In this document: positions 2,396-64,000 of the stretch, piece after piece
Layout of the letters: every line of letters begins with the position of its first letter
Position numbering within the stretch: position 1 is the stretch's first letter
Origin: a virus
Lineage: Duplodnaviria; Heunggongvirae; Uroviricota; Caudoviricetes
IMG/VR virus record: IMGVR_UViG_3300012996_000001
Coordinates: 1-64,000 of that record
Length of the DNA: 64,000 nt
Direction: 5' to 3' (one strand)
The notes under the pieces: generated by a model
The model's database searches: none
What the model was told of the DNA's origin: nothing
Seen by the model: only the letters and a program-made list of their open reading frames with translations
Program-made: the position numbers and the translations under genes

Positions 2396-2399
2396 TGAA

Positions 2400-8734: not shown

Positions 8735-8772
8735 CCCACCTATAAAGTAAGAGACTAAGAGGATACTTTATA

Positions 8773-9195: not shown

Positions 9196-9399
9196 ATGAA
9201 AGATTGTGTAAATAGCATAGTGGCCTTTGGGATGAATCAAAAAGAACTCGACATTGTCTGTTTTGTGGCATTCGTCACAGGAATCGTCCTGTTTGGTCGT
9301 TGGATGATCAACTATCTTAACGCCCCTGTTGGAAAAGAGATGGATCGTTCATTCTTATCTGTTGACTTGGAGAGAGAAAATGCATCTCGTCGTAAGTGA
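9196..9399 (+). CDS. small membrane protein
   Basis: Internal ATG preceded by a GGAGA RBS. One TM helix. Confidence 0.35.
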   Translation: MKDCVNSIVAFGMNQKELDIVCFVAFVTGIVLFGRWMINYLNAPVGKEMDRSFLSVDLERENASRRK

Positions 9400-9685
9400 A
9401 AATTTGGCCGAACATTTAGAAAAAATATACCTGGCACAGCCTAAACCTCGTTTCTACGGCTGGTGCTTGGATATCAATAACCAACTGGAGTTCTTAGAGA
9501 GCAAACTCAAGCAGTTTGACTTGGAATTCACAGTTGAAGATTTCACTCAAGACGGCGATAGCCTGCGTGTTACAGTGTCAGGCGATCCTGACCAAGTATC
9601 TCGTATGGATATGGCTCTTCTTGTCTACTCAAATGCAAAGTCAATGCAATACTTGGTTACTTTGCGACATATGGATAAGGAATAA
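9380..9685 (+). CDS. hypothetical protein
   Basis: ATG with a GGAGAGAGAAA RBS. The ORF track starts it at 9329. Confidence 0.4.
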   Translation: MHLVVSENLAEHLEKIYLAQPKPRFYGWCLDINNQLEFLESKLKQFDLEFTVEDFTQDGDSLRVTVSGDPDQVSRMDMALLVYSNAKSMQYLVTLRHMDKE

Positions 9686-9686
9686 C

Positions 9687-10442: not shown

Positions 10443-10867
10443 TGAGTAATAAAGAGTTAAGTTCTTTCCTTGAGCGGTTGAAGGAAACTTCTGCCATTGT
10501 GGAAACGTGGCCGGATTGGAAGAAAAATCAGTTAGGTGCTGAATATGTTACAAGGAACCATCAAGAAGAATTAGATCCTGACGAAATGGAGTTTGAAAGT
10601 CCCGAGGGTAGCGTATGGATCGTTGCTGTAGACATACAGGGCCTGGTTACTATTCTTAAAGCACCCAATATCCATTACAGTTATTTTGATAATGGTAAAA
10701 GTGCGGAAGACATTGGTTTGCCTTGCGAAGTGGAAGATGTTGGCCCTGGCGTATATCGCTGGACTTGCGACTTGATTTCAAGCAAAGACTGGGAAACTGG
10801 GATTGTGGACGACTACGAGTTCCAAGTAGAAAAGCAAGAGCTGTTGTGGTCACCGGAAAGTGCTTGA
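10442..10867 (+). CDS. hypothetical protein (141 aa)
   Basis: ATGA overlap with the Sir2 stop, suggesting translational coupling. Confidence 0.45.
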   Translation: MSNKELSSFLERLKETSAIVETWPDWKKNQLGAEYVTRNHQEELDPDEMEFESPEGSVWIVAVDIQGLVTILKAPNIHYSYFDNGKSAEDIGLPCEVEDVGPGVYRWTCDLISSKDWETGIVDDYEFQVEKQELLWSPESA

Positions 10868-10953
10868 CGTCTTAAATTTTATTGCGGTATTCTTAATCGG
10901 CAGCGGGCTTTCTCTCGCTGCCTTGACAATAGTTGCTTTACGAAGGAGAAACA

Positions 10954-12321: not shown

Positions 12322-12743
12322 GTCCGGGAGGTGTATTGTGGTTAGTTTTAGCTGCGTTGGCGTTGTTTGGGTGGACTTATATCAGTAAAATACACCCGCT
12401 AGTTATGACTCGACCTCCGGTGAAGAAAATTCTCGAATTGGTTTCTTGCCAGGATGGTTTTTGCATTGATGATAACCCAGCAGACAAGAGTTGTGATTTC
12501 ATCTTGCACGACACGGTGACCGCCGCTAAGACAGAGATAACGCGAGATTGTTTTTCTGGACATATTCTTTTCGAAGGTGACTTTGATTGGATGAACCAGT
12601 TCGAAAGAAAACGGCTGCATGATGTTCTGTGCAAAATCCATAAGGATCGCGTTTCAAAATACCAAGAAGCTTGTCGTGTGGAGAAAAAGGCCAGCGATGA
12701 AAGAAATCGTGAGGCTGCAATTAAAATTTACGAAAACCGTTGA
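12318..12743 (+). CDS. hypothetical membrane-anchored protein (141 aa)
   Basis: N-terminal TM segment; overlaps the ligase stop. Confidence 0.4.
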   Translation: MSPGGVLWLVLAALALFGWTYISKIHPLVMTRPPVKKILELVSCQDGFCIDDNPADKSCDFILHDTVTAAKTEITRDCFSGHILFEGDFDWMNQFERKRLHDVLCKIHKDRVSKYQEACRVEKKASDERNREAAIKIYENR

Positions 12744-12767
12744 CAGTTTGAAGGGGTCGTGTAGAAT
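12740..12767 (+). promoter_or_regulatory. promoter TTGACAGT-N16-TAGAATGA
   Basis: Nearly identical to the nrdB promoter at 27558-27585. Confidence 0.45.
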
Positions 12768-12796
12768 GACCCCTACCACAACAGAAGGAGTTATTG

Positions 12797-13210
12797 ATGT
12801 CAAAGCAGTTCATTAAAGATGCAATCCGTACCGAGTCACCAAATTTCTTTATCGAAAAGGTCGACCCGCGTCTTCTCCATGCCGCAATTGGATTGGGGAC
12901 TGAAGCAGGAGAGATCCAAGACGCTCTTAAAAAGACTATCTATTACGGCAAAGACCTCGACTTAGTTAACCTGAAAGAGGAAGTCGGCGACATTTTGTGG
13001 TACTTAGCAATTGCAATGGATGTTCTCAACACAGATTTCGATAGTGAGCAGGACCGTGTTATCCGCAAGCTGAAGGCTCGTTACCCGAGTAAGTTCGAGA
13101 ACGACCTGGCGGAAAACCGCGACATTGCAGCCGAGCGCAAGATTCTGGAAACTGAATCCAAAGGATTCAACAAAGGTCATCCCGCATATGTTCCGGGAAT
13201 TGACGATTAG
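12797..13210 (+). CDS. MazG-like nucleoside triphosphate pyrophosphohydrolase
   Basis: All-alpha NTP-PPase pattern HAAIGLGTEAGEIQD ... EEVGDILWYL. Confidence 0.6.
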   Translation: MSKQFIKDAIRTESPNFFIEKVDPRLLHAAIGLGTEAGEIQDALKKTIYYGKDLDLVNLKEEVGDILWYLAIAMDVLNTDFDSEQDRVIRKLKARYPSKFENDLAENRDIAAERKILETESKGFNKGHPAYVPGIDD

Positions 13211-13275
13211 AAGTTGTTGACACACTAATATTTAACGGGCACAATGGCCCTACTTTAAACAAAGAGGAGATTAAG

Positions 13276-13605
13276 ATGTCTAAGCAAGACCTGATTAACA
13301 CCATCCCTTCAGACGAAGTGGCTCGTAAAAAGCTGGTGAACACTGTTAACGCGGCGGTCCAGTTAATGAAGGATATCAAAGGTTCTCAGGAAGACCTGAA
13401 AACCGTAATCGCGGTGGCGAAAGAGGATCAGAACATCGATCCTAAGTTCCTGAAGACACTTGTCAAGTTTGAATTTGACACCCAAGTGACAGCCGAGAAG
13501 AAGCGTGCTGAACTGGAGGCCCAAGTCGAACAGGTTAATGAACTGGACATCCTGATGGGACGTTCTGATATTGCAAAAACTGCCGTATTCGGCGGCGCTG
13601 AGTAA
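13276..13605 (+). CDS. hypothetical coiled-coil protein (109 aa)
   Basis: RBS AGGAGA. Confidence 0.45.
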   Translation: MSKQDLINTIPSDEVARKKLVNTVNAAVQLMKDIKGSQEDLKTVIAVAKEDQNIDPKFLKTLVKFEFDTQVTAEKKRAELEAQVEQVNELDILMGRSDIAKTAVFGGAE

Positions 13606-32382: not shown

Positions 32383-33249
32383 ATGGAAGAAGATGATGTA
32401 ATGCTTGATCCGGTGTACAAAGGTAATGTTTGGTGTACACCTCAGGAGAGGAAAGACTGGAGAGTATACCTGACTGATCTTGTTAGTGACCCGCGAAATC
32501 ACATAGAAGGTTTGGATATCATCCGCCAGGCGGGTGAAGATGACGTCGTCGAGATCCTGATAACTTCCCCAGGCGGTAATATCGACCTGGCGGACATGTA
32601 CGTGGCGGCTATGGCAGACAGTAGAGCGAAGATCATTACCCGGGCGATTGGCCTGTGTGCTAGTGCCGCTACTACTATCTTTTTATCGGGCGATGAAAGG
32701 GTGTGCGATCCCGGCTGCTATTTCATGTTCCACAATGTGCAATTCACCAACTCAGGCGGCGATGCGGCCAACGTCTTTGGCAGCGCGAAGTTTTACGAGC
32801 GTCTTTTCAAAGAGAAGTATTACGGGCTTATGTCAGAAGTCCTTACCGAGGATGAGCTTTCTGAGTTATTCGACAGGGCAGGGGAGATTTATCTGACAGG
32901 TCGAGAAATGGAAGAACGATTTACTGCTGTTGACACAGCAAGTCAAACTCCGTCCTATACGGACATTGTTCTGGGAAATGTCGAAAGCCCGGTAACTCTG
33001 CCTTTCAAGCAGATAGAAGTTCCTTTGGCTACGCAGTTTGAATCGAGAGACGACTTCGATATTACGTTAGAGTGTGGGTACAGTAAAACTCTACGTCTAG
33101 GGTCTATACATCCGAAGGATTTTGATGAGTTTAACATGGAAGAGATCCTAGAGATTGGAGACTGCTTTGGTATCGACCTCGACGGATTGACTAGGTCGCA
33201 GGCACTTGAAGATCTGGTCAGCGCAATCCTGAATGGAGGTGGTCGTTAA
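32383..33249 (+). CDS. ClpP-family (S14-like) serine protease homologue
   Basis: ITSPGGNIDLADMYV...GLCASAATTIF...MFHNV matches the ClpP pattern (NSPGG...G.AASMG...MIHQP). Candidate Ser and His catalytic residues are present. Confidence 0.5.
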   Translation: MEEDDVMLDPVYKGNVWCTPQERKDWRVYLTDLVSDPRNHIEGLDIIRQAGEDDVVEILITSPGGNIDLADMYVAAMADSRAKIITRAIGLCASAATTIFLSGDERVCDPGCYFMFHNVQFTNSGGDAANVFGSAKFYERLFKEKYYGLMSEVLTEDELSELFDRAGEIYLTGREMEERFTAVDTASQTPSYTDIVLGNVESPVTLPFKQIEVPLATQFESRDDFDITLECGYSKTLRLGSIHPKDFDEFNMEEILEIGDCFGIDLDGLTRSQALEDLVSAILNGGGR

Positions 33250-53000: not shown

Positions 53001-53355
53001 TCGTATGCACAGAAATGCATAAGTATTGTAAAGATTATTCAGGATTTCATGAGTTTACTGATTTAGACTTTATGCACATTTTATAGGTTGAGTCAACAGG
53101 GTTAAATCCTTCGTATAAGCCATCCTGAGCACAGTTAGGGTTGGGCAGTACCCTAGCCCATTTTGGCGGATATGTCGTTAATAAGCACTTTGCTGCATAG
53201 AATTGGATGAGAATAGATCGCATTTCCACAAAAGGGTAGTTTTAGGTTGGATTGTTGAATGATGGGTTACTACAGGTTGGGGGTGGCTGATCTGCCCACT
53301 TACCGTAGGCAAAGAAAAGCCCGCTCAAGGCGGGCCAGTCTCAGTATCTAATCTT

Positions 53356-53505
53356 TTATTCTTTAACTTCCTTTACCTCATACCCTCTCACACCGCGTAT
53401 TTGAGCAAACATGAACTTGCCTGTTTCCGAGGCGTCTTTGTATGTGTTATAAGTACCTTCTAACTCGATTTCGCCATCAAAGTGTTTTACGTAAAGTTGA
53501 AACAT
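53356..53505 (-). CDS. small hypothetical protein (49 aa)
   Basis: Not in the track. AAGGG RBS. Followed on the minus strand by terminator 53305-53340 (GGCCCGCCTTGAGCGGGC plus T-run). Confidence 0.35.
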   Translation of the reverse strand: MFQLYVKHFDGEIELEGTYNTYKDASETGKFMFAQIRGVRGYEVKEVKE

Positions 53506-53565
53506 AATTAAGCCCTTTTAGATCTGGGTTAGCGTTATTGCCTCCCGATGAAAAGATTATACGAC

Positions 53566-53590
53566 AAAAGCCCCTTTCGGGGCAAGTGTT
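53566..53590 (-). terminator. terminator hairpin GCCCC-GAAA-GGGGC, overlapped by the next minus-strand promoter (TTGCCC-N18-TATAAT, 53556-53585)
   Basis: Hairpin followed by TTTTGTCG on the minus strand. On the plus strand it also precedes a T-run. Confidence 0.45.
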
Positions 53591-53605
53591 TTTATGCTTT
53601 TACTG

Positions 53606-53791
53606 TTATTTTCTTTCACCTTCTATTGCGTCAATAAACGCGCTAACGTCCATTGTAAAACTTAAAGCGCCTGACCGCTTACAAGGAAGATCCCGCAAAT
53701 ACTCAATATTTCCTTGCATTACAATGGCTGTTTCTAGGTATCTTAACGCTTTATGTAAAATGTGTGCATTCGGGTAGTTTTCTTTTTTCAC
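53606..53791 (-). CDS. hypothetical protein (61 aa)
   Basis: ORF in the leftward early cluster. Confidence 0.35.
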   Translation of the reverse strand: MKKENYPNAHILHKALRYLETAIVMQGNIEYLRDLPCKRSGALSFTMDVSAFIDAIEGERK

Positions 53792-54003
53792 TCTATCACC
53801 TGATAGCCGATTGTTTCACACCAAGAGAGCGCTTGCTCTTTCGTGTCAAATCTGCATTTCTCTATTGCCTCGTTAGCCCGATAACCTGACTTTATTTTCA
53901 GAGTGTAATCAACTCTGTGACGATAACGATTAGTGATTATCTTAACTTTCATGGCGTTACCCTCATTTATTTTTACTTTCTTTTCACAAGATAGTCTGCC
54001 CAT
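53788..54003 (-). CDS. hypothetical protein (71 aa)
   Basis: ORF with ATGA overlap. Confidence 0.35.
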   Translation of the reverse strand: MGRLSCEKKVKINEGNAMKVKIITNRYRHRVDYTLKIKSGYRANEAIEKCRFDTKEQALSWCETIGYQVIE

Positions 54004-54221
54004 TCGAAAGACAAACTTAAGTTTTCGCCTGTTTCATCACCCACCCAAACCCCGTCGCCTTTGTATGTTGCTGTTGCCTTAAGGAAGTAATCTTCTCTGG
54101 CAACTGACCACTGGAAAGCGTGATAGACACAACCAATCTCAGCACAATAGGCCGGGCCCAATTTTTCAATGTCATTCACGATAGCCAATCTTGACTTAGC
54201 AAAGTAGTATTTTGGTTCCAT
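53973..54221 (-). CDS. hypothetical protein (82 aa)
   Basis: ORF. Confidence 0.35.
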   Translation of the reverse strand: MEPKYYFAKSRLAIVNDIEKLGPAYCAEIGCVYHAFQWSVAREDYFLKATATYKGDGVWVGDETGENLSLSFEWADYLVKRK

Positions 54222-54321
54222 GATTTTTACCTTTTGATTAGTAGATATTTACCCTATAGGAGAAATAATAGCAAAAAGGCCCACACCATGCAAGAGTGTA
54301 GGCCAATTATTTTTGTAAAGA

Positions 54322-54630
54322 TTAGCGGCTATTCGCCTTGAGCCAACGGCGCATAAAGCGATAAGCATTGTCTTTGTGTGGGCCTTCCCGTAGGCTTACC
54401 CTTTCCAGGTAATCAATAGACAATTCTCCGCGCTTACGGACTAAGCGCAAAAGGGACAAAGTGTTGGCTACCTTATGCCGGGGATCGTGCCTGATGCCGC
54501 CTGCATTCAGATTTACGACGCTGTGAATAGTCACTTTAGCCATCTTATCAAAAGCGCCATGAAACAGCTTTAAAGGCGGGGCCTTTCGTTGTTGATACCA
54601 GGCCAACACGGTTAAGGAAGTATTGATCAT
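54322..54630 (-). CDS. hypothetical basic protein (102 aa)
   Basis: ORF. Confidence 0.4.
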   Translation of the reverse strand: MINTSLTVLAWYQQRKAPPLKLFHGAFDKMAKVTIHSVVNLNAGGIRHDPRHKVANTLSLLRLVRKRGELSIDYLERVSLREGPHKDNAYRFMRRWLKANSR

Positions 54631-54800
54631 ATTTCACCCATGCATGATTGTTTGGTAGCAATAGTGTATGACCGGAATCAGGACAATGATCACGGCGTAG
54701 TCGACAACATCAAAAAACTCTTTTAAATCACGGATAACGTTTTTCATCTTTTCACCTGGCTGTAAGGAAGTTATTTCCGGGTCTCTTGCCCGATGAAAAG

Positions 54801-54829
54801 ATTATAGGTTATAACGTGAACCGATGCAA
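54801..54829 (-). promoter_or_regulatory. sigma70 promoter TTGCAT-N17-TATAAT (leftward)
   Basis: Reverse complement of ATGCAAgcgaattttatagctcaATTATA. Downstream 5' leader TCTTTTCATCGGG is shared with the promoters at 53556 and 55730. Confidence 0.5.
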
Positions 54830-54836
54830 GCGAATT

Positions 54837-55181
54837 TTATAGCTCAATGTTGTTTAGGTAAGCTAACATCTGGAAGTGTGATTTTGCCCGGTTTTCACCT
54901 TTGCGGAAACTACCAAAACCAGAGTTGATGATCTTGCTCATTTCCGTGATTTCGTACATTTCACCGCCAATGTGGCGTAGTGTAATGATAGTTGTTTCAT
55001 TCTGTACTTGGGCAATCACACCTTTTGCAGGGGTAAAGTCATTTGCACAGACACGGGGAGCAAAGCAGTTTTTAAGCCATTCAAAAATACACAATACAGA
55101 CCAAACCAGCAAGCACACAACGATAAGCACAAGAAACATTGAGACAATCGGATTTTTGATGATTTCGATTAGTGTGTTCAT
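54837..55181 (-). CDS. membrane protein (114 aa)
   Basis: N-terminal TM helix. Confidence 0.4.
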   Translation of the reverse strand: MNTLIEIIKNPIVSMFLVLIVVCLLVWSVLCIFEWLKNCFAPRVCANDFTPAKGVIAQVQNETTIITLRHIGGEMYEITEMSKIINSGFGSFRKGENRAKSHFQMLAYLNNIEL

Positions 55182-55227
55182 TTTCTATTCTCTGTTGGGT
55201 TGGCTTTATTGCCTGATAAATAATTTA

Positions 55228-55258
55228 TCAAAAGCGCCTGATGAAAGCAAGCGCTTTT
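55228..55258 (-). terminator. bidirectional hairpin terminator AAAAGCGC-CTGATGAAAGCAA-GCGCTTTT
   Basis: Perfect 8-bp stem flanked by A-run and T-run. Confidence 0.5.
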
Positions 55259-55268
55259 ACTAATTATT

Positions 55269-55592
55269 TTAATTTTCCCGACAATCGCAACAATCACAAT
55301 GATCATCGATTATTCTTTTCCGCATCGCCGCCGGGGATAACTCCGCTATAGCATCCTGCATCGCAAAGATCGTTTCCAAGTCCTGGCGATGTTCCGCAAT
55401 GTAATCAAAGGTGCGCTGTTTGTCTCTGAATAGGTTCCCGGTATGGTTACTGTGGAGACCATCAACGAAAGCGCCTAAAACATCATCGCCGTGCTGTTTG
55501 AGTTTTTCGTAGCCTTTGATTTCAATTTCGCCGTGTTTACTTTTAACAGTGTACACAACAACAGATTCGATAGTGAATTTTTCAGTGCTCAT
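55269..55592 (-). CDS. hypothetical protein with C-terminal HCDCCDC cysteine cluster (107 aa)
   Basis: ORF. Confidence 0.4.
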   Translation of the reverse strand: MSTEKFTIESVVVYTVKSKHGEIEIKGYEKLKQHGDDVLGAFVDGLHSNHTGNLFRDKQRTFDYIAEHRQDLETIFAMQDAIAELSPAAMRKRIIDDHCDCCDCREN

Positions 55593-55729
55593 ATTTGATT
55601 ACCATCCGCAAAGAATGCATATTGAGGCTGCACAGACAACAGCGATTAAGGCAGAAATTACGAAGATAGCGAACATGATTTTTACCTCTCTGTCATCTGT
55701 GTGTTTTGGCCTTCTGGCCCGATGAAAGA

Positions 55730-55759
55730 AGTATAGGTCATTTCACTATCTGCCGTCAA
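55730..55759 (-). promoter_or_regulatory. sigma70 promoter TTGACG-N18-TATACT (leftward)
   Basis: Reverse complement of the + strand AGTATAggtcatttcactatctgcCGTCAA. Confidence 0.5.
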
Positions 55760-55931
55760 TAGTTATTTTAGCGATTCCTCAAATGTTTTTTAGCCATAAG
55801 CCGCGCCGTTACTTTACTATGCCCGGCTTCCATGTAATAACGAACCAGGCGATCAAGATTGTGCCGCTTTTCTGCTTTGGTCTCTCCGGTTGGTATCCAT
55901 CCACCCCAATCACTGAATAGCTTACGATCAT

Positions 55932-56234
55932 TCATACTTGAGCCTCTTCCGCTATGGCATCATTAACGATACGGGCAATGACGCCGGGAATCCGGTCCGC
56001 TGCCAAAGGATAGCTTTTCACATGTTCAATAACACCATGCCCTTTAATACTGACCCGATAAGCAACTTGAAAAAAGCCAGGTGACGAACAAGTGACAGCA
56101 AGTTCAATACCGCTGCCGCTATGATCATCCTTATGGCGGAAATTGATCAACGTCTCCGCGTCAAAACGGGAAAAGTCGGTCACAATGTAAGGGTTAACAG
56201 CGGACAGGAAGAAAAATTTATTTGCTTGTTCCAT
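55932..56234 (-). CDS. hypothetical protein (100 aa)
   Basis: ORF. Confidence 0.4.
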   Translation of the reverse strand: MEQANKFFFLSAVNPYIVTDFSRFDAETLINFRHKDDHSGSGIELAVTCSSPGFFQVAYRVSIKGHGVIEHVKSYPLAADRIPGVIARIVNDAIAEEAQV

Positions 56235-56278
56235 TTTGGAGCCTCATTAGGTTTGTGTTTCATCTGTTGATAGCCCGT

Positions 56279-56308
56279 ATTCTACAACGAGCTATCCGCC
56301 GATGTCAA
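56279..56308 (-). promoter_or_regulatory. sigma70 promoter TTGACA-N18-TAGAAT; -10 flanked by IR GATAGC/GCTATC
   Basis: Reverse complement of + ATTCTAcaacgagctatccgccgaTGTCAA. Confidence 0.5.
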
Positions 56309-56484
56309 CGCTTAATTGTAACTTTATCCGCCTCTTTGAAGTAGGCGCGGATCTGTCCCGGCAACAATCGTAAGTCGGCTTGCAGGTGTGACAGACGATA
56401 GGACCGCCCGGCGGTTAAAACATGTTGACCGCAACCATTGCCAATAACGATGTTTACAGTGCATACTAACAGGGAGGCTCTCAT
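56305..56484 (-). CDS. hypothetical protein (59 aa), alternative to track ORF 56324..56527
   Basis: ATGA overlap with the stop of the upstream gene and an AAGGTGG RBS. Frame choice is uncertain. Confidence 0.3.
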   Translation of the reverse strand: MRASLLVCTVNIVIGNGCGQHVLTAGRSYRLSHLQADLRLLPGQIRAYFKEADKVTIKR

Positions 56485-56876
56485 GCTGCCACCTTTGAAC
56501 GGGGGTCATTAGTGACACGGTAGACAAATCGGTAACCTGTGGGGATCTCCACCCGGCGGGCCTCTTTCAATTCATAGCCTAATTGCCCGAGCTTAAATAA
56601 AGGCGTTTCCACACCACGGTTAACAGACTGTTCACGGCGGTAAGGGGAAGTCAAAACAACCGGGCCAAATGCGTTAAGATAACCGTTAGCGGCTGCATCT
56701 TCTGATCCGCCACTGACCAGCCAGGCGGAATATTTGTTGATACTGTTGCCGTTCACGTCGCGGCCAAAATCGAAAGTTTCAAGGACAATGAACAGATCAC
56801 CATCTTGGAAAGCTTCGACGTTCTGCATTGCTGATACTGCATCTTTGAGAGTGTGCTTGATGTTTAACATTTTCAT
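56481..56876 (-). CDS. hypothetical protein (131 aa from MKMLNIK)
   Basis: The track extends it to 56951, but that would run through a consensus promoter. Internal ATG 56876 has an AAAAGG RBS. Confidence 0.4.
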   Translation of the reverse strand: MKMLNIKHTLKDAVSAMQNVEAFQDGDLFIVLETFDFGRDVNGNSINKYSAWLVSGGSEDAAANGYLNAFGPVVLTSPYRREQSVNRGVETPLFKLGQLGYELKEARRVEIPTGYRFVYRVTNDPRSKVAA

Positions 56877-56922
56877 AATGTGTGTACCTTTTAAGGGTTG
56901 ATTTCGTTTGTCTGTAGGCCCT

Positions 56923-56951
56923 ATTATGCAGGACCTACAAACCAGCGTCAA
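56923..56951 (-). promoter_or_regulatory. sigma70 promoter TTGACG-N17-CATAAT; -10 inside IR GTAGGTCC/GGGCCTAC
   Basis: Reverse complement of + ATTATGcaggacctacaaaccagCGTCAA. Confidence 0.5.
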
Positions 56952-57281
56952 TCAATTTAATTCTAAACGCTGCATTTTATCTTTAAAACTGTCGTCTGCG
57001 TCTTGCAGGTTTTGCAAGTAAACTTCTTTCGAAGATAAACCGACCCATTGACCAGGCAACACACGGTAACAACCTGCGATCAAAAACTTGTTGCGATCAT
57101 TGGGCACTAATGTAACCTCTTCTGGATAACGCTGGTTAAGCAGGGTTACACAATCCGCTGCATCGCGGCGATATTCGGAGGCGCTGCCTGCGTAAACCTC
57201 TTCATAAGCAACTTCACATTTTTCAGCGTTGTTGCTGTCTACTGTGCAAAGGAATGAAGCGAGTACGATAGTTGCGATCAT
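56952..57281 (-). CDS. secreted protein with signal peptide (109 aa)
   Basis: N-terminal hydrophobic signal plus cysteines. Confidence 0.4.
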   Translation of the reverse strand: MIATIVLASFLCTVDSNNAEKCEVAYEEVYAGSASEYRRDAADCVTLLNQRYPEEVTLVPNDRNKFLIAGCYRVLPGQWVGLSSKEVYLQNLQDADDSFKDKMQRLELN

Positions 57282-57335
57282 GATATTTTACCTTTATCGG
57301 TTGTTGGTTGATTACTTTCGTTTGTCTATGCCGTC

Positions 57336-57365
57336 ATTATAGGCGACGGCATAACCTAACGTCAA
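57336..57365 (-). promoter_or_regulatory. sigma70 promoter TTGACG-N18-TATAAT; -10 in the loop of 9-bp IR TATGCCGTC/GACGGCATA
   Basis: A 50-nt block is near-identical to the one at 59555-59604. Confidence 0.55.
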
Positions 57366-57369
57366 GCGG

Positions 57370-57681
57370 TTAACGATTATTTTTCAGTTTCCAATCTTCA
57401 TATTGAGAAGGGGATATCATGCAGACCGTCTCACCAACCGGGAAATGATCCCAACCTGTGACGTAGTCTGTTGACAGAAGAATAGCCACACACTGCACAT
57501 TTTCCACTTCATCCTCGGTAACCATAAGATGCGGCGATGGTGCTTCAATTTCTTGCACGGTGATTGCAGTTTCACCCTTGTAAAATACGTCGCCGGGGAC
57601 AAGGTCTAAAACATTTTTAGTGAATTGCATATCAGATACCCCAACGACGAAAAGTGGATGATTTATTAGCCTTAAGTTCAC
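57370..57681 (-). CDS. hypothetical protein (103 aa)
   Basis: ORF. Confidence 0.4.
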   Translation of the reverse strand: MNLRLINHPLFVVGVSDMQFTKNVLDLVPGDVFYKGETAITVQEIEAPSPHLMVTEDEVENVQCVAILLSTDYVTGWDHFPVGETVCMISPSQYEDWKLKNNR

Positions 57682-57874
57682 GCTTAAGACGGTTACAGCG
57701 GTTTGACATTGCGAAGTGTGACGGGGTTACAATCGTTGCGCCCGTGTTAGTGTGGATTTTCATTACTTGCTGTTTCATGATTCGATTCCTGTTTGTTGGC
57801 GTTTCGTCGCCCTGTGATTGCATTATGTATCAACCAAACCAGGGCGTCAATAGCCTAAAACAAAAATATTTAAA

Positions 57875-58111
57875 TTATTTTACTGTGACTCGGACAGCCT
57901 CTAAAGTTGAGAGTGTCGCCGGGTCTGTGACCAGCGCTTGCCCCGTAGAGATCTTGACAGATTCACGGATCGCCGTGGCGGCCAGAGCCTTGCAGGTGGA
58001 GCGATAATTTTTACCATCTGTTACCAGGTACAGGGCAGAAAATCCACGGGGTTTAGTGGCAAGTAAGCGGGTAAACTCGGTAAGGCTGAAAAGGTTTTGC
58101 ATGGTGTACAC
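57875..58111 (-). CDS. hypothetical protein (78 aa)
   Basis: GTG/ATG start with a GAGGTG RBS. Preceded by hairpin GGGCCCATTTAGGGCCC plus T-run. Confidence 0.35.
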   Translation of the reverse strand: MYTMQNLFSLTEFTRLLATKPRGFSALYLVTDGKNYRSTCKALAATAIRESVKISTGQALVTDPATLSTLEAVRVTVK

Positions 58112-58325
58112 CTCAAATCAAAAATAAGGGCCCTAAATGGGCCCGTGTGCGGTTTAAAGTTTTTAGCCTTGTGTTGACCTGGTTCGGAGTTACTCCCAGT
58201 TATAGCGCGTTTTGCGGCGCTGTTGCTTGTTGCTCTTTTCCCGTGGCTGGCGGTCCTGTGCTTCGCTGTAGGACAAGCGGGCCCGGTGTGTTACTTTACT
58301 ACGATTTGCGTTTGTATGTAACATG

Positions 58326-58640
58326 TTAACCTCTGCGTCGTTGGGTTTGTTGTTGGTGCATATGTTGTCGCTGATCGATGATATCACAGATATCATCTTC
58401 ATTACTTTTGTAAACTTCATACACGATAGTAGCGCCCATCTCTTGACGATAGCGGATTGCGCCAACCATATCGATCTCTAGCATGGGGCCGTAATCACGA
58501 GATGATCCGATTTCGCCCCGATAATCATATTCAAAGTAACCGAACATTTTTTGAGCCTTTAACCAATTATGATGTGTTGCTGTCTTCATGCACCAAACAG
58601 CAAACACAACAAGGATGATGATAACGATTATTAAGTACAT
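58326..58640 (-). CDS. membrane-anchored protein (104 aa)
   Basis: N-terminal TM helix. Confidence 0.4.
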   Translation of the reverse strand: MYLIIVIIILVVFAVWCMKTATHHNWLKAQKMFGYFEYDYRGEIGSSRDYGPMLEIDMVGAIRYRQEMGATIVYEVYKSNEDDICDIIDQRQHMHQQQTQRRRG

Positions 58641-58648
58641 AATCAGCC

Positions 58649-59053
58649 TTAATCGATGATCTTATTACGGCGTGCAAGTGTAATCAATGCCATAGCCAGC
58701 ATGGGAAAATAGTTGTCGATAGCGTCGCTAACCTTCTGGATACCTGCTACAGTATTGCTTTCTAAATCCTTTTCTGTCAAGTATTCCCACTTGATCAGCA
58801 ATTCCTGGATTTCATGATTAGTGAAAGCATGGTTGATAGTGCTTGGCAACCCTTGCAGGTAAGAAGTTAAGGACTTTTGAATACCTTTTCGCGGGTTTTC
58901 CCAACCGTATTCGGATTCAAAAGTTTCAAAGAAAAACTTGAGTTTTTCAAAGGTAGAACCCTCGTGATCGATAACAGAAACGGCGTAATCACGGACGGCG
59001 TGAATGTGGATCAGTTTTGCGGAAGTGTTGACAGTATTTGATTTGATAGTCAT
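58649..59053 (-). CDS. hypothetical protein (134 aa)
   Basis: ORF. Confidence 0.4.
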   Translation of the reverse strand: MTIKSNTVNTSAKLIHIHAVRDYAVSVIDHEGSTFEKLKFFFETFESEYGWENPRKGIQKSLTSYLQGLPSTINHAFTNHEIQELLIKWEYLTEKDLESNTVAGIQKVSDAIDNYFPMLAMALITLARRNKIID

Positions 59054-59136
59054 AGTCTTTATCTCGTTTGGTTTGGTAGTGTTTCTCTTAATGGATAGCC
59101 CACTGTAAAGGGCTATCGGTTAAGAGTCAACAAATA

Positions 59137-59541
59137 TTATAAATCTTTTTTGCGTGGAACGTCATACACGTTTTCACTGTAAGGTATTTTCAATTCCTGC
59201 GCTACTTGACAAATGTAGGCAAAGTTACGCCACTCTTTGGGACAATCTTGCACAGCCTCAATGAACAGGACTAAGGCTGTATTCTCAAAATGCCTTTCAT
59301 AGCCGTAAACGTCGGACACATAGGCCAGGTCTATCCAAACATCGCCTACTTTATTGCCGTAAGTGTTGGCGTTTAACCGATCTGCAACTTCGACAGATAC
59401 CAGGACACCAACAGAAACACTATGATAAGTATTCCCGGCGCTGCGTTGGAACCAACGTTTACCAGTGATCGAAATTTCTTTAATGTCTTTTGTCTGGAGT
59501 TCTGTTTGAAAAATCGCGAAATTTTTGCTCATTTTGGTCAT
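59137..59541 (-). CDS. hypothetical protein (134 aa)
   Basis: ORF. Confidence 0.4.
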   Translation of the reverse strand: MTKMSKNFAIFQTELQTKDIKEISITGKRWFQRSAGNTYHSVSVGVLVSVEVADRLNANTYGNKVGDVWIDLAYVSDVYGYERHFENTALVLFIEAVQDCPKEWRNFAYICQVAQELKIPYSENVYDVPRKKDL

Positions 59542-59578
59542 TCCTGTATGTTGATTACTTTCGTTTGTCTATGCCGTC

Positions 59579-59608
59579 ATTATAGGCGACGGCATAACCA
59601 CACGTCAA
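59579..59608 (-). promoter_or_regulatory. sigma70 promoter TTGACG-N18-TATAAT with IR TATGCCGTC/GACGGCATA (duplicate of 57336)
   Basis: Reverse complement of + ATTATAggcgacggcataaccacaCGTCAA. Confidence 0.55.
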
Positions 59609-59610
59609 GC

Positions 59611-59820
59611 TTAAATTACGTCGGTATATAAATTTTCAAGTTCTCCAGAAAAAACAGCTACCGATCCGTAAGCAGACAGATCAAAATCTTCCAGGTCGCC
59701 AAAATCATTTTGGTAATCTTCTTTCGCCGCTGCTACAAAAGCGGCGTGGGGGCCTTCAGCCTCGATACGATAGATTGGGTTCGTATTGTCAATGCTTAAA
59801 ACCACGGTGAATTTTTTCAT
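59611..59820 (-). CDS. hypothetical protein (69 aa)
   Basis: ORF. Confidence 0.35.
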   Translation of the reverse strand: MKKFTVVLSIDNTNPIYRIEAEGPHAAFVAAAKEDYQNDFGDLEDFDLSAYGSVAVFSGELENLYTDVI

Positions 59821-59863
59821 TTTGTTTCCTTTATTTGGGTAATTTTATTTGTCTATGTCGGTT

Positions 59864-59892
59864 ATTATGAAGACAGTGTGCAATGAAGTCAA
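59864..59892 (-). promoter_or_regulatory. sigma70 promoter TTGACT-N17-CATAAT
   Basis: Reverse complement of + ATTATGaagacagtgtgcaatgaAGTCAA. Confidence 0.45.
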
Positions 59893-60125
59893 GCGGTTTT
59901 TACCAAATTATTAAAAAATTCCTGTGGCTTAACATGGGCGTTTTTGCCACCATTACCCAACCAAGCGTTAAGATGGCGGGTTGTCGTGGTGCTATACTTA
60001 CGATCTACCTTGTAGCTGATTCCGCCGATGACCGCCGCCACTGGTGTGCTGTAAGAATAGAAAACCTGTGAGCCGTCGGCCAGGGTGATCATGGTTTGGT
60101 TTGCGCCGATAGTAGTCAGATTCAT
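59889..60125 (-). CDS. hypothetical protein (78 aa)
   Basis: ORF. Confidence 0.4.
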   Translation of the reverse strand: MNLTTIGANQTMITLADGSQVFYSYSTPVAAVIGGISYKVDRKYSTTTTRHLNAWLGNGGKNAHVKPQEFFNNLVKTA

Positions 60126-60177
60126 TTTGTAGCCCCGTTTGTTTGATTGTTGTTACTGTTTCGTTTGCATATGCCGC

Positions 60178-60207
60178 TATTATATGTGGCGGCATAAACC
60201 AACGTCA
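60178..60207 (-). promoter_or_regulatory. sigma70 promoter TTGACG-N18-TATAAT with IR TATGCCGC/GCGGCATA
   Basis: Reverse complement of + ATTATAtgtggcggcataaaccaaCGTCAA. Confidence 0.55.
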
Positions 60208-60217
60208 ACAATTATTT

Positions 60218-60457
60218 TTAGCAAACTGTAACTTTTTCGCCGTCTACCATTATGTAAGTGTGCCCGGCGTTGCTGTACTGGTCAACATAAATCCGGCGGC
60301 GCTTTCCTTGATAGTTAAGCATATAAGAGGTAGGGATCTTTGTGCCATAGCCCGTAGCGGTTTTTTGTAGGCCCTGGCGTTGCCATTCAAGCGGTGCGTA
60401 GATCGGAGCGTAGAAGTCTGAGGCATGATCGGGGTGGCTAATCATTACGGTTTTCAT
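60218..60457 (-). CDS. hypothetical protein (79 aa)
   Basis: ORF. Confidence 0.4.
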   Translation of the reverse strand: MKTVMISHPDHASDFYAPIYAPLEWQRQGLQKTATGYGTKIPTSYMLNYQGKRRRIYVDQYSNAGHTYIMVDGEKVTVC

Positions 60458-60511
60458 TTACGGTTACCTTTTCAGTTTTGGCGGCGGTCATTCCGTCGCT
60501 CTATGGGATAC

Positions 60512-60540
60512 ATTATGGATAGTATCGGGGCCGGAGTCAA
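60512..60540 (-). promoter_or_regulatory. sigma70 promoter TTGACT-N17-CATAAT
   Basis: Reverse complement of + ATTATGgatagtatcggggccggAGTCAA. Confidence 0.45.
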
Positions 60541-60560
60541 TACCCCAAAACAAAAATAAT

Positions 60561-60950
60561 TTAAATATTTATGCCGCTGTCTTTTGGGTCTATAGTACCG
60601 CCGTTGTCGATGATGCAGCGGATCACGGCATCACCCATTGCCTTGCATTCTGCCCAAGTGGGGGCCAGTATTTCAATATAGGGAAAGCAGGCAGCGCCGC
60701 CAGGGAATTGATTGATATCGGCTTGACCGCTCGTTTCTGCATTTGAGGCGGCAACATGAACGGCATTATTTAATTCGTCCCATTCCAGATAGGGAAACTT
60801 TTGATCGCTTTCGTCGTTGATGAACTCCCCGGCCTTATCGTGGGAATCGTAGGATACGTAACAACGAAACATAGGTTGCACAACAACAGAAGGGATTTTG
60901 TTTTTCATGGGACGGACTCCAAAATAAAATAGCCCGGCATCGCCGGGCAT
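60561..60950 (-). CDS. hypothetical protein (129 aa)
   Basis: ORF. Confidence 0.4.
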   Translation of the reverse strand: MPGDAGLFYFGVRPMKNKIPSVVVQPMFRCYVSYDSHDKAGEFINDESDQKFPYLEWDELNNAVHVAASNAETSGQADINQFPGGAACFPYIEILAPTWAECKAMGDAVIRCIIDNGGTIDPKDSGINI

Positions 60951-60956
60951 ATTGTG

Positions 60957-61247
60957 TTAAACTACGGCTTCCCAGGCGGATTTACCAGTATTGGCAACTT
61001 TCACCACGTCACCGCTAGTCACCTGCACATTGTAGAGCGGGTTACCGTCTTTGCCTGTCTCTTTGTCAGAGTACACAGCAACGATTTTATCAAACGGGCT
61101 CAGTGCACCCTTTTTGATGCGTTTGCCGTTACCATCGGTAATGAAACCAATATGCACAGAATCGCCAACCTTTGGATCACGCAATTCAGGGTTAGTTTTT
61201 GCACGATGAGCATTGATCATTTGGGTAGCTGTGGTTTCTTTTTTCAT
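60957..61247 (-). CDS. hypothetical protein (96 aa)
   Basis: ORF. Confidence 0.4.
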   Translation of the reverse strand: MKKETTATQMINAHRAKTNPELRDPKVGDSVHIGFITDGNGKRIKKGALSPFDKIVAVYSDKETGKDGNPLYNVQVTSGDVVKVANTGKSAWEAVV

Positions 61248-61315
61248 CTGTAAATCTCCTCTTGGGTTTAAAGTAGGGCTATCTTAGCACAGCCCTGTTC
61301 ACGGGTAAATAAATA

Positions 61316-61531
61316 TTAACGCTTTTTGATAGATAAAGTGCCGCCAACATGCTTAGCAGTGACGCGCCAACCGGATTCGGTTTTTACTGGCGCTGTCGGC
61401 GTGATACCGCTTTGGCGAAGGCGCTTAGCGATAGCGCGGGCATCGTCCCGAGTACGGAAAGCGGGCATAGTTACAACAGCCGCCAGGTTTACAGCCGGGG
61501 TCGGACGTTTCTTAATCTTAACTGTAGCCAT
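61316..61531 (-). CDS. small basic protein (71 aa), possibly DNA-binding
   Basis: ORF rich in K/R. Confidence 0.35.
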   Translation of the reverse strand: MATVKIKKRPTPAVNLAAVVTMPAFRTRDDARAIAKRLRQSGITPTAPVKTESGWRVTAKHVGGTLSIKKR

Positions 61532-61578
61532 GATATCACCTTTGTTTAGTGGGTTTGTTTCTTCTCTTGATAACCCAT

Positions 61579-61608
61579 ATTCTATTATGGGTTATCCGGC
61601 GAAGTCAA
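61579..61608 (-). promoter_or_regulatory. sigma70 promoter TTGACT-N18-TAGAAT flanked by 10-bp IR ATAACCCATA/TATGGGTTAT
   Basis: Reverse complement of + ATTCTAttatgggttatccggcgaAGTCAA. Confidence 0.5.
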
Positions 61609-61611
61609 CAA

Positions 61612-62052
61612 TTATTTTACGACACGTACATATTTATATTGCTGCTCTGCACTGATGCCGCCCGTACTGTTGGCGCGTGGTACTTCCAGGTGAGACGGTA
61701 ACCAACCTGTAGACACACCTACATTGAAGCGGCGGATCTCACCGTACAAAGTTTCAACCTCAACGCGGCGGCCCTCTAAGCCTTTAAGCTGTGGCGATAG
61801 TTGAACCGGGCACTTAATTTTCTTGTGGTTGCAATAGCGTGAAACCTGAGAGATCACTTTTTGGCAAGCCTCAAAGTGCTTCTTAGTTCCAACACGGGCC
61901 GGGATTTGTGGGATAGCTTGCGGGTCCTGTTTAAAGAGCCAATCACGCAAGGCAATAGCCTGTTTGTTTAAGTAATCGAAACCGTTACAGGTGTAACCTG
62001 TGCCGTGGTTGAGAACATAAAGGCGGCGTGCTTTGTCGATTGAATGTAACAT
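61612..62052 (-). CDS. hypothetical protein (146 aa)
   Basis: ORF. Confidence 0.4.
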   Translation of the reverse strand: MLHSIDKARRLYVLNHGTGYTCNGFDYLNKQAIALRDWLFKQDPQAIPQIPARVGTKKHFEACQKVISQVSRYCNHKKIKCPVQLSPQLKGLEGRRVEVETLYGEIRRFNVGVSTGWLPSHLEVPRANSTGGISAEQQYKYVRVVK

Positions 62053-62104
62053 TTTACTGTCTCTCTTTGTTTGTGGTCGACGTTGTGTCGTCCTGTTGAG
62101 ATGA

Positions 62105-62134
62105 ATTATAGGCCGGGAGGATTCCCGGCGTCAA
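62105..62134 (-). promoter_or_regulatory. sigma70 promoter TTGACG-N18-TATAAT; spacer contains IR CCGGGAATCCTCCCGG
   Basis: Reverse complement of + ATTATAggccgggaggattcccggCGTCAA. Confidence 0.55.
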
Positions 62135-62153
62135 TACAATTTTTAAATTATTT

Positions 62154-62477
62154 TTACTTTTCGTCTAAGCCTTTGTAAATATAAGGCTTTCCGTCGACTA
62201 GGCTATACACAACATAGTTACCCTGGCGATCTTTATTCTTAAGAGTGATCGCTTTTGCTTCACATTGGGACAGGTTGCCAACATAAGCGGGGTCCAAGTC
62301 TGCAATGGTGACGGGACCAGGGGAAGGAAGAATTTTAAAGACAGCATAATCCCGGCTTACACTGTCATAACCTGCGAACCATTCCCCCTGGTTAGCATCG
62401 GATTTGTAACGGCAAGCGCGGATTGATCCTTTATGTGCTGCCTCTTGCCCTTCGATAAAATATTTTGTGTGCTGCAT
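62154..62477 (-). CDS. hypothetical protein (107 aa)
   Basis: First ORF of the leftward cluster. RBS AAGAGGAGG. Confidence 0.45.
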   Translation of the reverse strand: MQHTKYFIEGQEAAHKGSIRACRYKSDANQGEWFAGYDSVSRDYAVFKILPSPGPVTIADLDPAYVGNLSQCEAKAITLKNKDRQGNYVVYSLVDGKPYIYKGLDEK

Positions 62478-62547
62478 AGTAACCTCCTCTTATATAGGTG
62501 TGTTAAGTATGCGCCGAAAATATTGTTTTTGCAACTGTTGACACGCC

Positions 62548-62576
62548 GCTAAGATCTGCCCATAATAGAGACATAA
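62548..62576 (+). promoter_or_regulatory. promoter TTGACA-N17-CATAAT (rightward)
   Basis: Upstream of ORF 62595..62861. Confidence 0.45.
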
Positions 62577-62594: not shown

Positions 62595-62861
62595 ATGAAA
62601 ACAAATACGGAATTATTAATACAGGCGTTAGGCTGGCAAAGCGGCACCGTTCACGAGGTGGCACAGCAGACCGGAATGACTGTCAGTCAAGTGTCAGAAC
62701 TGCACACTTTTGGCGACAGTGTTTACAATACCCCGCGCCGCCGGGGTCACTGGGACGCCAGCCAGGGTACTATCGCCGCTGCACCGTCTGACTTGAACGA
62801 CGCAAGCGGGTTAATCTCTTATTGGTACGGGGTTATCCAATTCCACAGGGGTTATTTTTAA
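62595..62861 (+). CDS. hypothetical protein (88 aa)
   Basis: RBS ACGAGGG. Confidence 0.4.
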   Translation: MKTNTELLIQALGWQSGTVHEVAQQTGMTVSQVSELHTFGDSVYNTPRRRGHWDASQGTIAAAPSDLNDASGLISYWYGVIQFHRGYF

Positions 62862-63346: not shown

Positions 63347-63404
63347 TTATACATGGCGAGGGGTGACGGGATTCGCGAGGCAAACACGGGAGGTGCCTGT
63401 CGTT

Positions 63405-63520
63405 TTGCAAATGAGAATGATTATCATTCAGCAATGTAAATGAGAAAGATTCGCATTCAAGGTCTCAAATGAGAATGATTATCATTTGACTTTTTAGAAA
63501 TGAGAATGATTCTGATTTGC
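63405..63520. repeat. four tandem Fur-box-like 19-bp repeats AAATGAGAATGATTATCATT (two perfect, two degenerate)
   Basis: Copies start at about 63410, 63437, 63467 and 63496. GAGAATGATTATCATT matches the Fur-box core GATAATGATAATCATT at 14/16 positions. Confidence 0.5.
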
Positions 63521-63569
63521 ATTTTTATTTTCACCTACCACGAGGATTTCGAATACGTTTTTGATTTTA

Positions 63570-63730
63570 AAATTTCGATCGAGACCCCGGCGCGAGACCT
63601 CTGTCGAGAAACCGAACACGATCGAGAAATTAAAAAAGCGATCGAGACCCCAGTTTTTATAGCTCGACTTCTTGCTTTTGCTCTGGAGATAGTTTACGAT
63701 TGCCAAGCTAAAAAGTCGATCGAGACCCTG
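63570..63730. repeat. iteron-like repeats CGATCGAGACCCC (three full copies plus partials)
   Basis: Full copies at about 63579, 63640 and 63716; partials CGATCGAGAAA (63614), GTCGAGAAACC and GCTCGAC. Confidence 0.45.
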
Positions 63731-64000
63731 TAAAATCATGAACGGATACTGTCCCGCGTCTACTACGCTGAAGGTGATTGGCTGTTTCGGTAGGTGGAGT
63801 GCGATGATGAAGGTTAACCCTTCCTCCATGCATCAACTGACATACTGCCTGACTTTTGCCGCCGCACGGAAGTTAGACAGAGAGTTTTCCATGCCCACCT
63901 AGAAATCTAAAATAGAATCTCGAATGGAATTTTGATTTGAAAACTGATTTCAAATATTGATACAAATATCATATCATCTCAATTAGAATTTGGTTTTGAA

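Follow-up and report, generated by a model that had tools for sequence, protein, structure and literature searches.

Why should the -10 hexamers of a whole series of early phage promoters lie inside long inverted repeats? The question is raised by the early region of a tailed phage, IMG/VR record IMGVR_UViG_3300012996_000001, positions 1–64,000 of which make up the 64,000-nt stretch analysed here (the window); about 28 small open reading frames (ORFs) lie there on the minus strand at 53.3–62.5 kb, and all ten of the early proteins tested fall into PHROGs of unknown function. On sequence similarity the phage is rV5/Certrevirus-like (Vequintavirinae-related), its closest relatives being the Certrevirus/Vequintavirinae myoviruses CR3, phiTE, PBES02, the F1M1E group and PcCB7V, with identities of 75–82% over only 6–25% of the segments compared. 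We think it probable, if by no means certain, that self-contained cassettes of the promoter-early stem-loop (PeSL) type are arrayed along the early region for the expression of its genes, in which the hairpin would insulate read-through RNA and the cassettes would aid recombination.

The minus-strand sites themselves are very probably early sigma70 promoters. Counting spacers of 17 or 18 nt, 14 sigma70-like sites on the minus strand of 53301–62200 score at least 10/12, compared to 0.88 ± 0.95 expected from 300 dinucleotide shuffles and only one such site on the plus strand; five promoter sites reach 11/12. By our own reading of the sequence a sigma70-like site is present in 16–17 of the approximately 19 intergenic gaps, which bears out the original prediction of near-consensus promoters in nearly every gap, and the remaining gaps hold plain terminators (60932–60948, 58128–58144). 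Naming each promoter or cassette by the first base of its -35 hexamer, the pattern TTGAC[GTA]-N17/18-(TATAAT/CATAAT/TAGAAT/TATACT) is found at P62134, P61608, P60540, P60208, P59892, P59608, P57850, P57365, P56951, P56308 and P55759, and weaker minus-strand sites occur at 59130 (TACAGT), 61309 (TTTACC/TAAGAT), 54829 and 53585. Seven of the eleven TTGAC sites have an 18-nt spacer, rather than the eight first counted, and spacer length follows hexamer type, all TATAAT, TAGAAT and TATACT sites having 18 nt and all CATAAT sites 17 nt, a rule that phage CR3 also obeys. An AT-rich tract lies 5' of the -35, the aligned cassettes opening with AAATAAT or AAAAAC in nearly all cases, and at the 3' end of the cassette stand a Shine-Dalgarno sequence and the start codon of a small ORF, 28–54 nt past the -10.

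At least seven of these promoters were expected to carry the -10 in an inverted repeat, and seven strong cassettes, or eight with the weak P61309, do have a palindrome centred on the -10 hexamer (single-strand folds of -22 to -27 kcal/mol, z = -4.3 to -7.9). The repeats are real, but longer than the 6–10 bp at first assigned to them: a repeat search extends the arms to 16–19 nt at 78–88% complementarity, and the whole palindrome covers about 55 nt and 19–23 pairs, from the -35 hexamer to approximately +18. Perfect cores of 8–11 bp surround the -10 at 61608, 60208, 59608, 59130 and 57365, with shuffle P <= 0.002 for the four that lie within the loop limit of the scan; the 8-bp core at 60208 exceeded the loop limit of the first scan and was scored in a later one. 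At 56951 and 56308 the arms are 10 bp long with a single T.G mismatch each. Read from the outside inwards, the fold comprises an outer stem, in which the two bases before the -35 and its TT pair with +14 to +18, with a GA bulge next to it; a second stem, in which -35 bases 5–6 and the first spacer bases pair with AACG or AAGAG of the leader; an internal loop; and an inner stem of 8–14 pairs with the -10 hexamer in its loop of 5–11 nt. The inverted repeat of P62134, previously placed around the -10, proved to be of another kind, as its CCGGGA-N4-TCCCGG sits in the spacer; the same spacer hairpin is present in CR3 and phiTE. At least five dissimilar arm sequences (TATGCCGTC, TATGCCGC, GATAACCCATA, GATAGCCC and TGTAGGTCCT) occur among the seven palindromes. 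The 50-bp block reported to recur is an exact direct repeat, at 57307–57356 and 59550–59599 and not at 57303–57352 and 59555–59604, its copies lying 2,243 bp apart. Rfam covariance models run over 53–64 kb gave no match except two sub-threshold chance matches.

Comparison of promoter architecture in related phages, the check suggested at the outset, was carried out by scanning the early regions of five relatives (CR3, Tr1, phiTE, SSBI34 and Kashira), in which the palindromes are present and display compensatory changes. Of the 114 promoter-like sites of the window and these relatives, 41% have a perfect stem of 6 bp or more (4.8% of shuffles) and 14% one of 8 bp or more (0.2% of shuffles), and the stem centres are bimodal, 24 lying mid-spacer, 18 on the -10 hexamer and none elsewhere. 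These perfect-stem statistics replaced a classification of promoters by RNAfold hairpins of at least 5 pairs, which discriminated too poorly: it called 37 'A' and 51 'S' among the 114 sites, but also 29 and 36 per 114 in shuffles.

An alignment (A1) was then made of 24 -10-enclosing cassettes from the window and the five relatives. Of the 14 pairs predicted by RNAalifold, 10 show compensatory changes, and in a 20-pair structure 88.4% of cells are paired compared to 34–43% with slid partners, compensatory changes affect 13 of the 20 pairs, and 77 cells carry double changes compared to 7–18 in slid controls; none of 500 shuffles attains the observed covariation value. In every cassette the sixth -35 base is matched by a complementary base near +10 (GC 14, UA 8, AU 2, none broken), the two positions covarying. 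A covariance model based on A1 recovers from the 64 kb exactly the seven strong cassettes, all in the gene sense and with no others, and also picks up, in L107 and L128, members that were not in its training set and whose arm sequences are new. Stem statistics and covariation thus establish that the hairpin structure is real and under selection. This covariation evidence for a selected long hairpin, and the pairing of the -35 hexamer with the initial transcribed region, are new here.

What the selection acts on is less easily decided. The original prediction favoured a common operator, and a dimeric phage or host repressor bound at the palindromes might shut off early transcription: overlap with the -10 is an effective place for repression, and an 88-aa ORF (62595–62861, a PHROG of unknown function) adjoins the cluster. 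However one genome holds at least five unrelated arm sequences in place of a single half-site, both arms change in compensation across relatives, and a symmetry of about 55 bp with internal loops far exceeds an operator. The only letters common to the palindromes, (C/T)AT(A/C), coincide with the start-site motif. Arms that vary on both sides and yet stay complementary indicate a folded strand, not a sequence read by one protein. A repressor acting in this way is therefore most improbable, and the system described here is not a new repressor system.

Standard sigma70 geometry places the predicted start site at the A of a conserved cATAG, within the 3' arm, so that 5' ends are predicted near 61572, 60172, 59572, 59095, 57329, 56916 and 56272 for the seven strong cassettes. 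The promoter's own transcript would therefore be without the 5' arm and could not form the hairpin, which argues against the suggestion that the -10 palindromes serve as RNA 5' stem-loops; the hairpin would form only in read-through RNA from an upstream promoter, or in unwound DNA. Both arms lie 3' of the predicted start only in the leader hairpins of P62134, P60540 and P57850, which are probably 5' stabilising stem-loops. These GC-rich hairpins begin at about +5 of the predicted transcript (catagGGCGAC..GTCGCC type; 62075–62093, 60481–60499 and ~57798–57812), belong to promoters that have no -10-enclosing hairpin, and are of a type common in CR3, SSBI34, Tr1 and Kashira.

In the arrangement that we propose, the small early genes, singly or in twos and threes, are each headed by a cassette: an A-rich UP-like tract comes first, then a near-consensus sigma70 promoter with its built-in hairpin, and after these a short, A-rich leader, the Shine-Dalgarno sequence and the start codon. 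The hairpins occur in two positions. Some surround the -10 with a long, imperfect stem in which the 3' half of the -35 and the spacer pair with -6 to approximately +18; others lie within the spacer, as a GC clamp or, distally, as a complete terminator including the T-run. Initiation by host RNA polymerase would take place at the A of cATAG, in the 3' arm. On read-through RNA the hairpin may insulate neighbouring units from each other, whether by attenuating or pausing transcription, by being a target for RNase processing or by forming a barrier at the 3' end, and the expression of each gene would mainly be set by its own promoter. The conserved 50–70-bp cassettes would at the same time offer homology for the insertion, deletion and swapping of promoter-plus-ORF modules.

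The likeness to T5 early promoters noted earlier misses the closest known relative of this arrangement, the PeSL cassettes of the T4-like phages RB49/phi1, T4/PST and KVP40/nt-1 (Arbiol et al. 2010, PMC2839356; Comeau et al. 2014, PMC4122927). PeSLs gather beside ORFans in hyperplastic regions, one PeSL stem-loop lowered the expression of lacZ downstream of it to approximately the same degree as the terminator rrnB T1, and PeSLs recombine with one another to give indels and mini-circles (PMC2839356, PMC4122927). The cassettes of the window resemble them in the near-consensus sigma70 early promoter with an A/T-rich tract upstream of the -35, in a stem-loop lying between -35 and -10 or overlapping the -10, in the Shine-Dalgarno sequence and small-ORF start codon at the 3' end, in their many copies among small genes of unknown function, with cassettes at the boundaries of indels and replacements, and in copies similar enough for recombination (the 50-bp exact repeat; a 73-bp island). 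When RB49 was scanned directly, both designs were found with nearly the same look and a similar upstream tract and leader (..CATACCGAAACGAA), the spacer design as aaaaagttgTTGACAggggatc..gatccccTATAATacacacataccgaaacgaa and the -10-overlapping design as GGGGATATagCATAATATCCCC. The phage studied here differs in being Certrevirus/Vequintavirinae-related and not T4-like, which concerns taxonomic range and not mechanism; its dominant hairpin is longer (about 20 pairs) and also joins the -35 hexamer to +8 to +18, and 18-nt spacers are frequent. Terminator activity and mini-circles have been shown only in RB49/phi1.

Other known systems correspond only in part. The N4 virion-RNA-polymerase promoters, with a 5–7-bp stem, a 3-nt loop and a phage polymerase, are also phage early promoters needing an inverted repeat, but the loop here is the sigma70 -10 hexamer. 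Certreviruses encode no RNA polymerase (PMC7344957). Their early promoters have the consensus AAAA(N3-4)TGTTGAC(N17-19)TATAAT at 13–21 sites per genome (Buttimer et al. 2020, PMC7344957), which is the consensus seen here, likewise among short hypothetical ORFs, in the relatives CR3, CR8, CR9 and CB7; that paper deals with the promoter only, stem-loop and palindrome being absent from its wording, and the rV5 paper lists promoters only. The cassette layout and the Certrevirus promoter consensus are thus already known.

The proposed role in recombination can be set beside the distribution of cassettes and genes. The cassette at 57299–57371 matches 29 phage records (95% identity in Citrobacter phage Tr1, Stephanstirmvirinae; 89% in CR3), and compared to CR3 it forms the 73-bp island, with similarity stopping at its edges; the cassette is conserved more widely than the genes. 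The TATGCCGTC cassette stands before unrelated genes (w57365 and w59608 in the window, CR3_8063, Tr1_8054 and SSBI34_7586), ORF 56952–57281 behind P57365 being unrelated to the gene behind P59608, and homologous genes stand behind differing cassettes (w60208, type A, against CR3_11085, spacer type). Gene order is kept among the window, CR3, phiTE, SSBI34 and L128, with the window-specific ORFs 60957–61247, 59611–59820, 57370–57778 and 56952–57281 inserted or replaced between conserved anchors and each bounded by cassettes. As judged from these sequences, cassettes and genes have been reassorted in a manner consistent with the shuffling model for PeSLs, and recombination between the 50-bp repeats is predicted to release a circle of 2,243 bp. 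A search for closer relatives with a 134-aa early protein as query returned only phiTE and one other Certrevirus-like contig.

Several observations weigh against cassettes with an RNA-level insulator. The tail that follows the -10-enclosing hairpins is AAACGAAAG with no U-run, hence they are not canonical intrinsic terminators, and the lone PeSL stem-loop tested as a terminator (PeSL211/210) is apparently, by our own identification, of the RB49 spacer type. The conservation of cassettes is explicable by selection on the promoter instead of by recombination. We found no start-site data or hairpin descriptions for Vequintavirinae in the literature, and no experiment on this phage or subfamily. 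Strand preference is mixed: the sense fold is the more stable in 22 of 26 cassettes in a set that was chosen by sense-strand folds, but under strand-neutral choice in 13 of 19 cassettes and 9 of 14 independent clusters (p = 0.07), and in the window cassettes the mean sense and antisense folds are -23.5 and -23.4 kcal/mol.

Equal folding of both strands in the window leaves room for a role at the DNA level, in which negative supercoiling, or melting of the -10 by polymerase, would extrude a hairpin or cruciform, taking -10 and -35 from the duplex, so that the strength of early promoters would vary with the superhelicity of the genome after injection. Horwitz and Loeb (1988) reportedly described an engineered promoter of E. 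coli that is regulated by cruciform extrusion. The palindromes are centred on an AT-rich -10, where extrusion is most easily nucleated, and the cores R11S6 (61608) and R8S8 (59130) satisfy published criteria for cruciform potential (repeats of 5 bp or more with a spacer no longer than 8; PMC6060812). However the arms are imperfect (78–88%) and loops reach 9–11 nt in three cassettes, both of which raise the cost of extrusion, and mismatches across relatives lean to sense-strand G.T (43 G.U cells compared to 15 A.C), which a two-strand cruciform does not predict. The spacer hairpins (6–7 bp, GC-rich) are too short for easy extrusion and yet occupy an equivalent niche. We therefore regard action in DNA as quite unlikely.

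The same balance of strands bears on whether the cassettes double as plus-strand terminators against antisense transcription from convergent plus-strand genes, as on the plus strand a stretch complementary to the A-rich UP tract (e.g. CAACAAUUAUUUU) comes after each long hairpin. The window cassettes fold no less stably on the antisense than on the sense strand, and at 61549 and 60150 the outer stem has a tail rich in U and A behind it. However a plus-strand terminator scan called none of the cassettes, the stem beside the U-rich tail is weak, AU-rich and bulged, in several cassettes the tail has few U residues (at 57307 it reads GGUUAAC), the A-tract is accounted for by a UP element alone, and sense wobble pairs outnumber antisense ones in the relatives; such a function is very doubtful.

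Alternatively the long hairpins may be sites placed in promoters for processing by RNase III or another endonuclease, which would cut read-through polycistronic RNA as in the T7 early region and leave a stabilising 3' hairpin on the upstream message. T7 early genes have RNase III sites as intercistronic hairpins, and the geometry here resembles these R-sites: the hairpins have 19–23 pairs with small internal loops over about 55 nt (50–60 nt in T7), lie between cistrons of an early region read by host polymerase and have no U-run, and the downstream Shine-Dalgarno sequence would be left free. The stems are however at the short end for RNase III, no strand bias is seen within the window, and the T7 sites are not superimposed on promoters, so that we consider processing, a more specific form of the RNA-level reading, unlikely. 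A further conjecture is that the long hairpin, which joins the -35 hexamer to the first 18 transcribed bases and holds the -10 in its loop, is no passive insulator but a nucleic-acid switch, either a DNA hairpin or cruciform whose extrusion tunes or shuts off early promoters with changing superhelicity or a cleavage mark on read-through RNA. This too we would not expect to hold; if true, it would mean a principle of regulation that has been demonstrated neither in PeSLs nor in rV5-like phages, and in its second form would separate 'own-promoter' from 'read-through' messages.

Returning to the PeSL-type cassettes, hairpins of the spacer kind do include terminators. Three distal cassettes (~55250, 54293 and 53585) resemble intrinsic terminators in having a GC hairpin and T-run between -35 and -10, a GC-rich hairpin being followed directly by a U-run at 53570–53583, 54278–54304 and 55230–55257, in contrast to the seven -10-enclosing hairpins. 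On sequence the phage has canonical terminators wherever needed. Coordinates of all cassettes and terminators are collected in Table 1.

Three promoters of this end of the cluster had been credited with a common transcribed leader. CTTTTCATCGGG does follow the -10 at 54829 and 53585, but 55759 has TCTTTCATCGGG, and most of the shared motif is discriminator (-6 to -1) and not leader. The motif TATA(A/C)T-(C)TTTTCATCGGG occurs four times compared to 0.07 expected (53544–53561, 54789–54806 and 55718–55735 on the minus strand, 32673–32690 on the plus strand) and is also found in CR3 (L001 near 5241) and phiTE (L003 near 8329); the sequence TATACT-TCYCTCA occurs in two promoters of the plus strand, at 33792 and 37059. 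The TTTTCATCGGG-motif sites may form a separate promoter class, perhaps of another temporal class, with a conserved discriminator.

Table 1. Promoter cassettes and terminators of the leftward early region
Feature	Coordinates	Strand	Description
P62134, type 2	62075..62141	minus	-35 TTGACG 62129-62134, N18, -10 TATAAT 62105-62110; drives ORF 61612-62052
P62134 GC hairpin	62112-62129	minus	GCCGGGA-N4-TCCCGGC, within spacer
P62134 5' leader hairpin	~62075-62093	minus	
P61608, type 1	61549..61617	minus	TTGACT-N18-TAGAAT; arms GATAACCCATA / TATGGGTTATC, 11 bp perfect, around -10; outer stem CTTC/GAAG; -23.7 kcal/mol, z = -6.7; 69.8 bits; drives ORF 61316-61531
P61309, weak type 1	61275..61309	minus	TTTACC-N17-TAAGAT; 6-bp arms around -10, AGGGCT (61291-61296) / AGCCCT (61275-61280); drives window-specific ORF 60957-61247
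Plain intrinsic terminator	60932..60948	minus	GCCCGGC..GCCGGGC + TATTTTATTT; no promoter in gap
P60540, type 2	60481..60546	minus	TTGACT-N17-CATAAT; repeats GGGGT/GCCCC around -35 and 5-bp GATAC/GTATC around -10; drives ORF 60218-60457
P60540 5' leader hairpin	60481-60499	minus	GCGACGG..CCGCCGC
P60208, type 1	60150..60217	minus	TTGACG-N18-TATAAT; arms TATGCCGC / GCGGCATA, loop 11 nt; -22.4 kcal/mol, z = -5.1; 75.2 bits; drives ORF 59889-60125
P59892	59857..59892	minus	TTGACT-N17-CATAAT; 4-bp repeat only, no significant hairpin; drives window-specific ORF 59611-59820
P59608, type 1	59550..59617	minus	TTGACG-N18-TATAAT; arms TATGCCGTC / GACGGCATA, extended to 17 nt at 82%; holds 50-bp repeat copy 59550-59599; predicted start A 59572; drives ORF 59137-59541
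P59130, type 1	59073..59139	minus	TTGACT-N17-TACAGT; arms GATAGCCC / GGGCTATC and outer stem CTCTTAA / TTAAGAG; -24.7 kcal/mol, z = -7.9; 46.9 bits; drives ORF 58649-59053
Plain intrinsic terminator	58128..58144	minus	GGGCCC..GGGCCC + TTATTTTT; no promoter in gap
P57850, type 2	57798..57850	minus	TTGACG-N17-CATAAT; leader hairpin GGCG..CGCC; CGCCCTG (57840-57846) / CAGGGCG (57808-57814) spans spacer, -10 and start site
P57365, type 1	57307..57374	minus	Second TATGCCGTC cassette copy, with 50-bp repeat 57307-57356; drives ORF 56952-57281
P56951, type 1	56893..56960	minus	TTGACG-N17-CATAAT; arms TGTAGGTCCT / AGGGCCTACA, one T.G; -26.7 kcal/mol, z = -6.4
P56308, type 1	56249..56317	minus	TTGACA-N18-TAGAAT; arms GATAGCTCGT / ACGGGCTATC, one T.G; -22.8 kcal/mol, z = -4.8; drives ORF 55932-56234
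P55759, first of distal class	55718..55759	minus	TTGACG-N18-TATACT then TCTTTCATCGGG
Type-3 terminator-in-promoter	55222..55257	minus	AAAGCGC..GCGCTTT + T-run overlaps TTGCTT (55245-55250)-N17-TAAATT (55222-55227)
P54829	54789..54829	minus	TTGCAT-N17-TATAAT then CTTTTCATCGGG
Type-3 cassette	54265..54304	minus	Terminator hairpin 54278-54304 + T-run; TTGCAT (54288-54293) in loop; -10-like TATTAT 54265-54270
Type-3 cassette P53585	53544..53585	minus	TTGCCC-N18-TATAAT; terminator GCCCCGAAAGGGGC-TTTTG (53570-53583) in spacer; then CTTTTCATCGGG
Intrinsic terminator closing leftward cluster	53318..53336	minus	

Promoters with a -10-centred repeat are also found elsewhere. Outside the early cluster, the plus strand of the window has TTGACA-N16-TAGAAT at 12740–12775 with GGGGTC-gtgTAGAAT-GACCCC centred on the -10. 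A loose pattern scan of IMG/VR (TTGAC-N17-20-YATAAT-N10-16-AAACGAAA) gave mostly single chance matches, and only L081, L107 and a few others were useful. In L081 (IMGVR_UViG_3300020682_000004, a 60-kb contig) the plus strand of 200–13600, some 14 kb, contains 30 near-consensus sigma70 sites, 14 of them with a perfect inverted repeat of 8–12 bp over the -10 (e.g. GTGTCCATTAgttTATAATGGACAC); as this phage contig is apparently unrelated, the design seems to be widespread and not confined to T4-like and rV5-like phages.

To the right of the early cluster, a back-to-back pair of divergent promoters lies at 62500–62570, TTGACA-N17-CATAAT (62538) on the plus strand reading into the 88-aa ORF and TTGCAA-N17-CATACT on the minus strand into ORF 62154–62477, the first gene of the leftward cluster. 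Further out, four copies of the palindromic AAATGAGAATGATT(A/C)TCATTT occur at 63400–63530, downstream of a plus-strand promoter at 63317 (TTGACT-N17-CATAAT). These AAATGAGAATGATTATCATTT repeats (63.40–63.53 kb) are found also in L001 near 1022 and L003 near 5088, GAGAATGATTCTCATTT follows a promoter in CR3 and phiTE too, and the repeat agrees with the E. coli Fur box at about 13 of 19 positions, as judged by eye. Unlike the -10 palindromes these repeats share one sequence, and they therefore look like operator candidates, for Fur or for a phage protein. In the non-coding stretch at 63570–63740, GGTCTCGATCG is present four or five times and could be an origin or an array of binding sites. At the other end of the window, a cluster of 10 tRNA genes occupies the minus strand of 51–2693.

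Compact strong promoters with built-in insulation would be of practical interest for phage engineering, and defined sequences are now at hand with which the role of the hairpin can be tested. The promoter-with-hairpin cassette, described before only for T4-like phages, appears also to organise the early region of rV5/Certrevirus-like phages and of at least one apparently unrelated contig, L081. That compensatory evolution keeps the hairpin supports the view that the cassette may be a general way of packing small early genes that are independently expressed and exchangeable.

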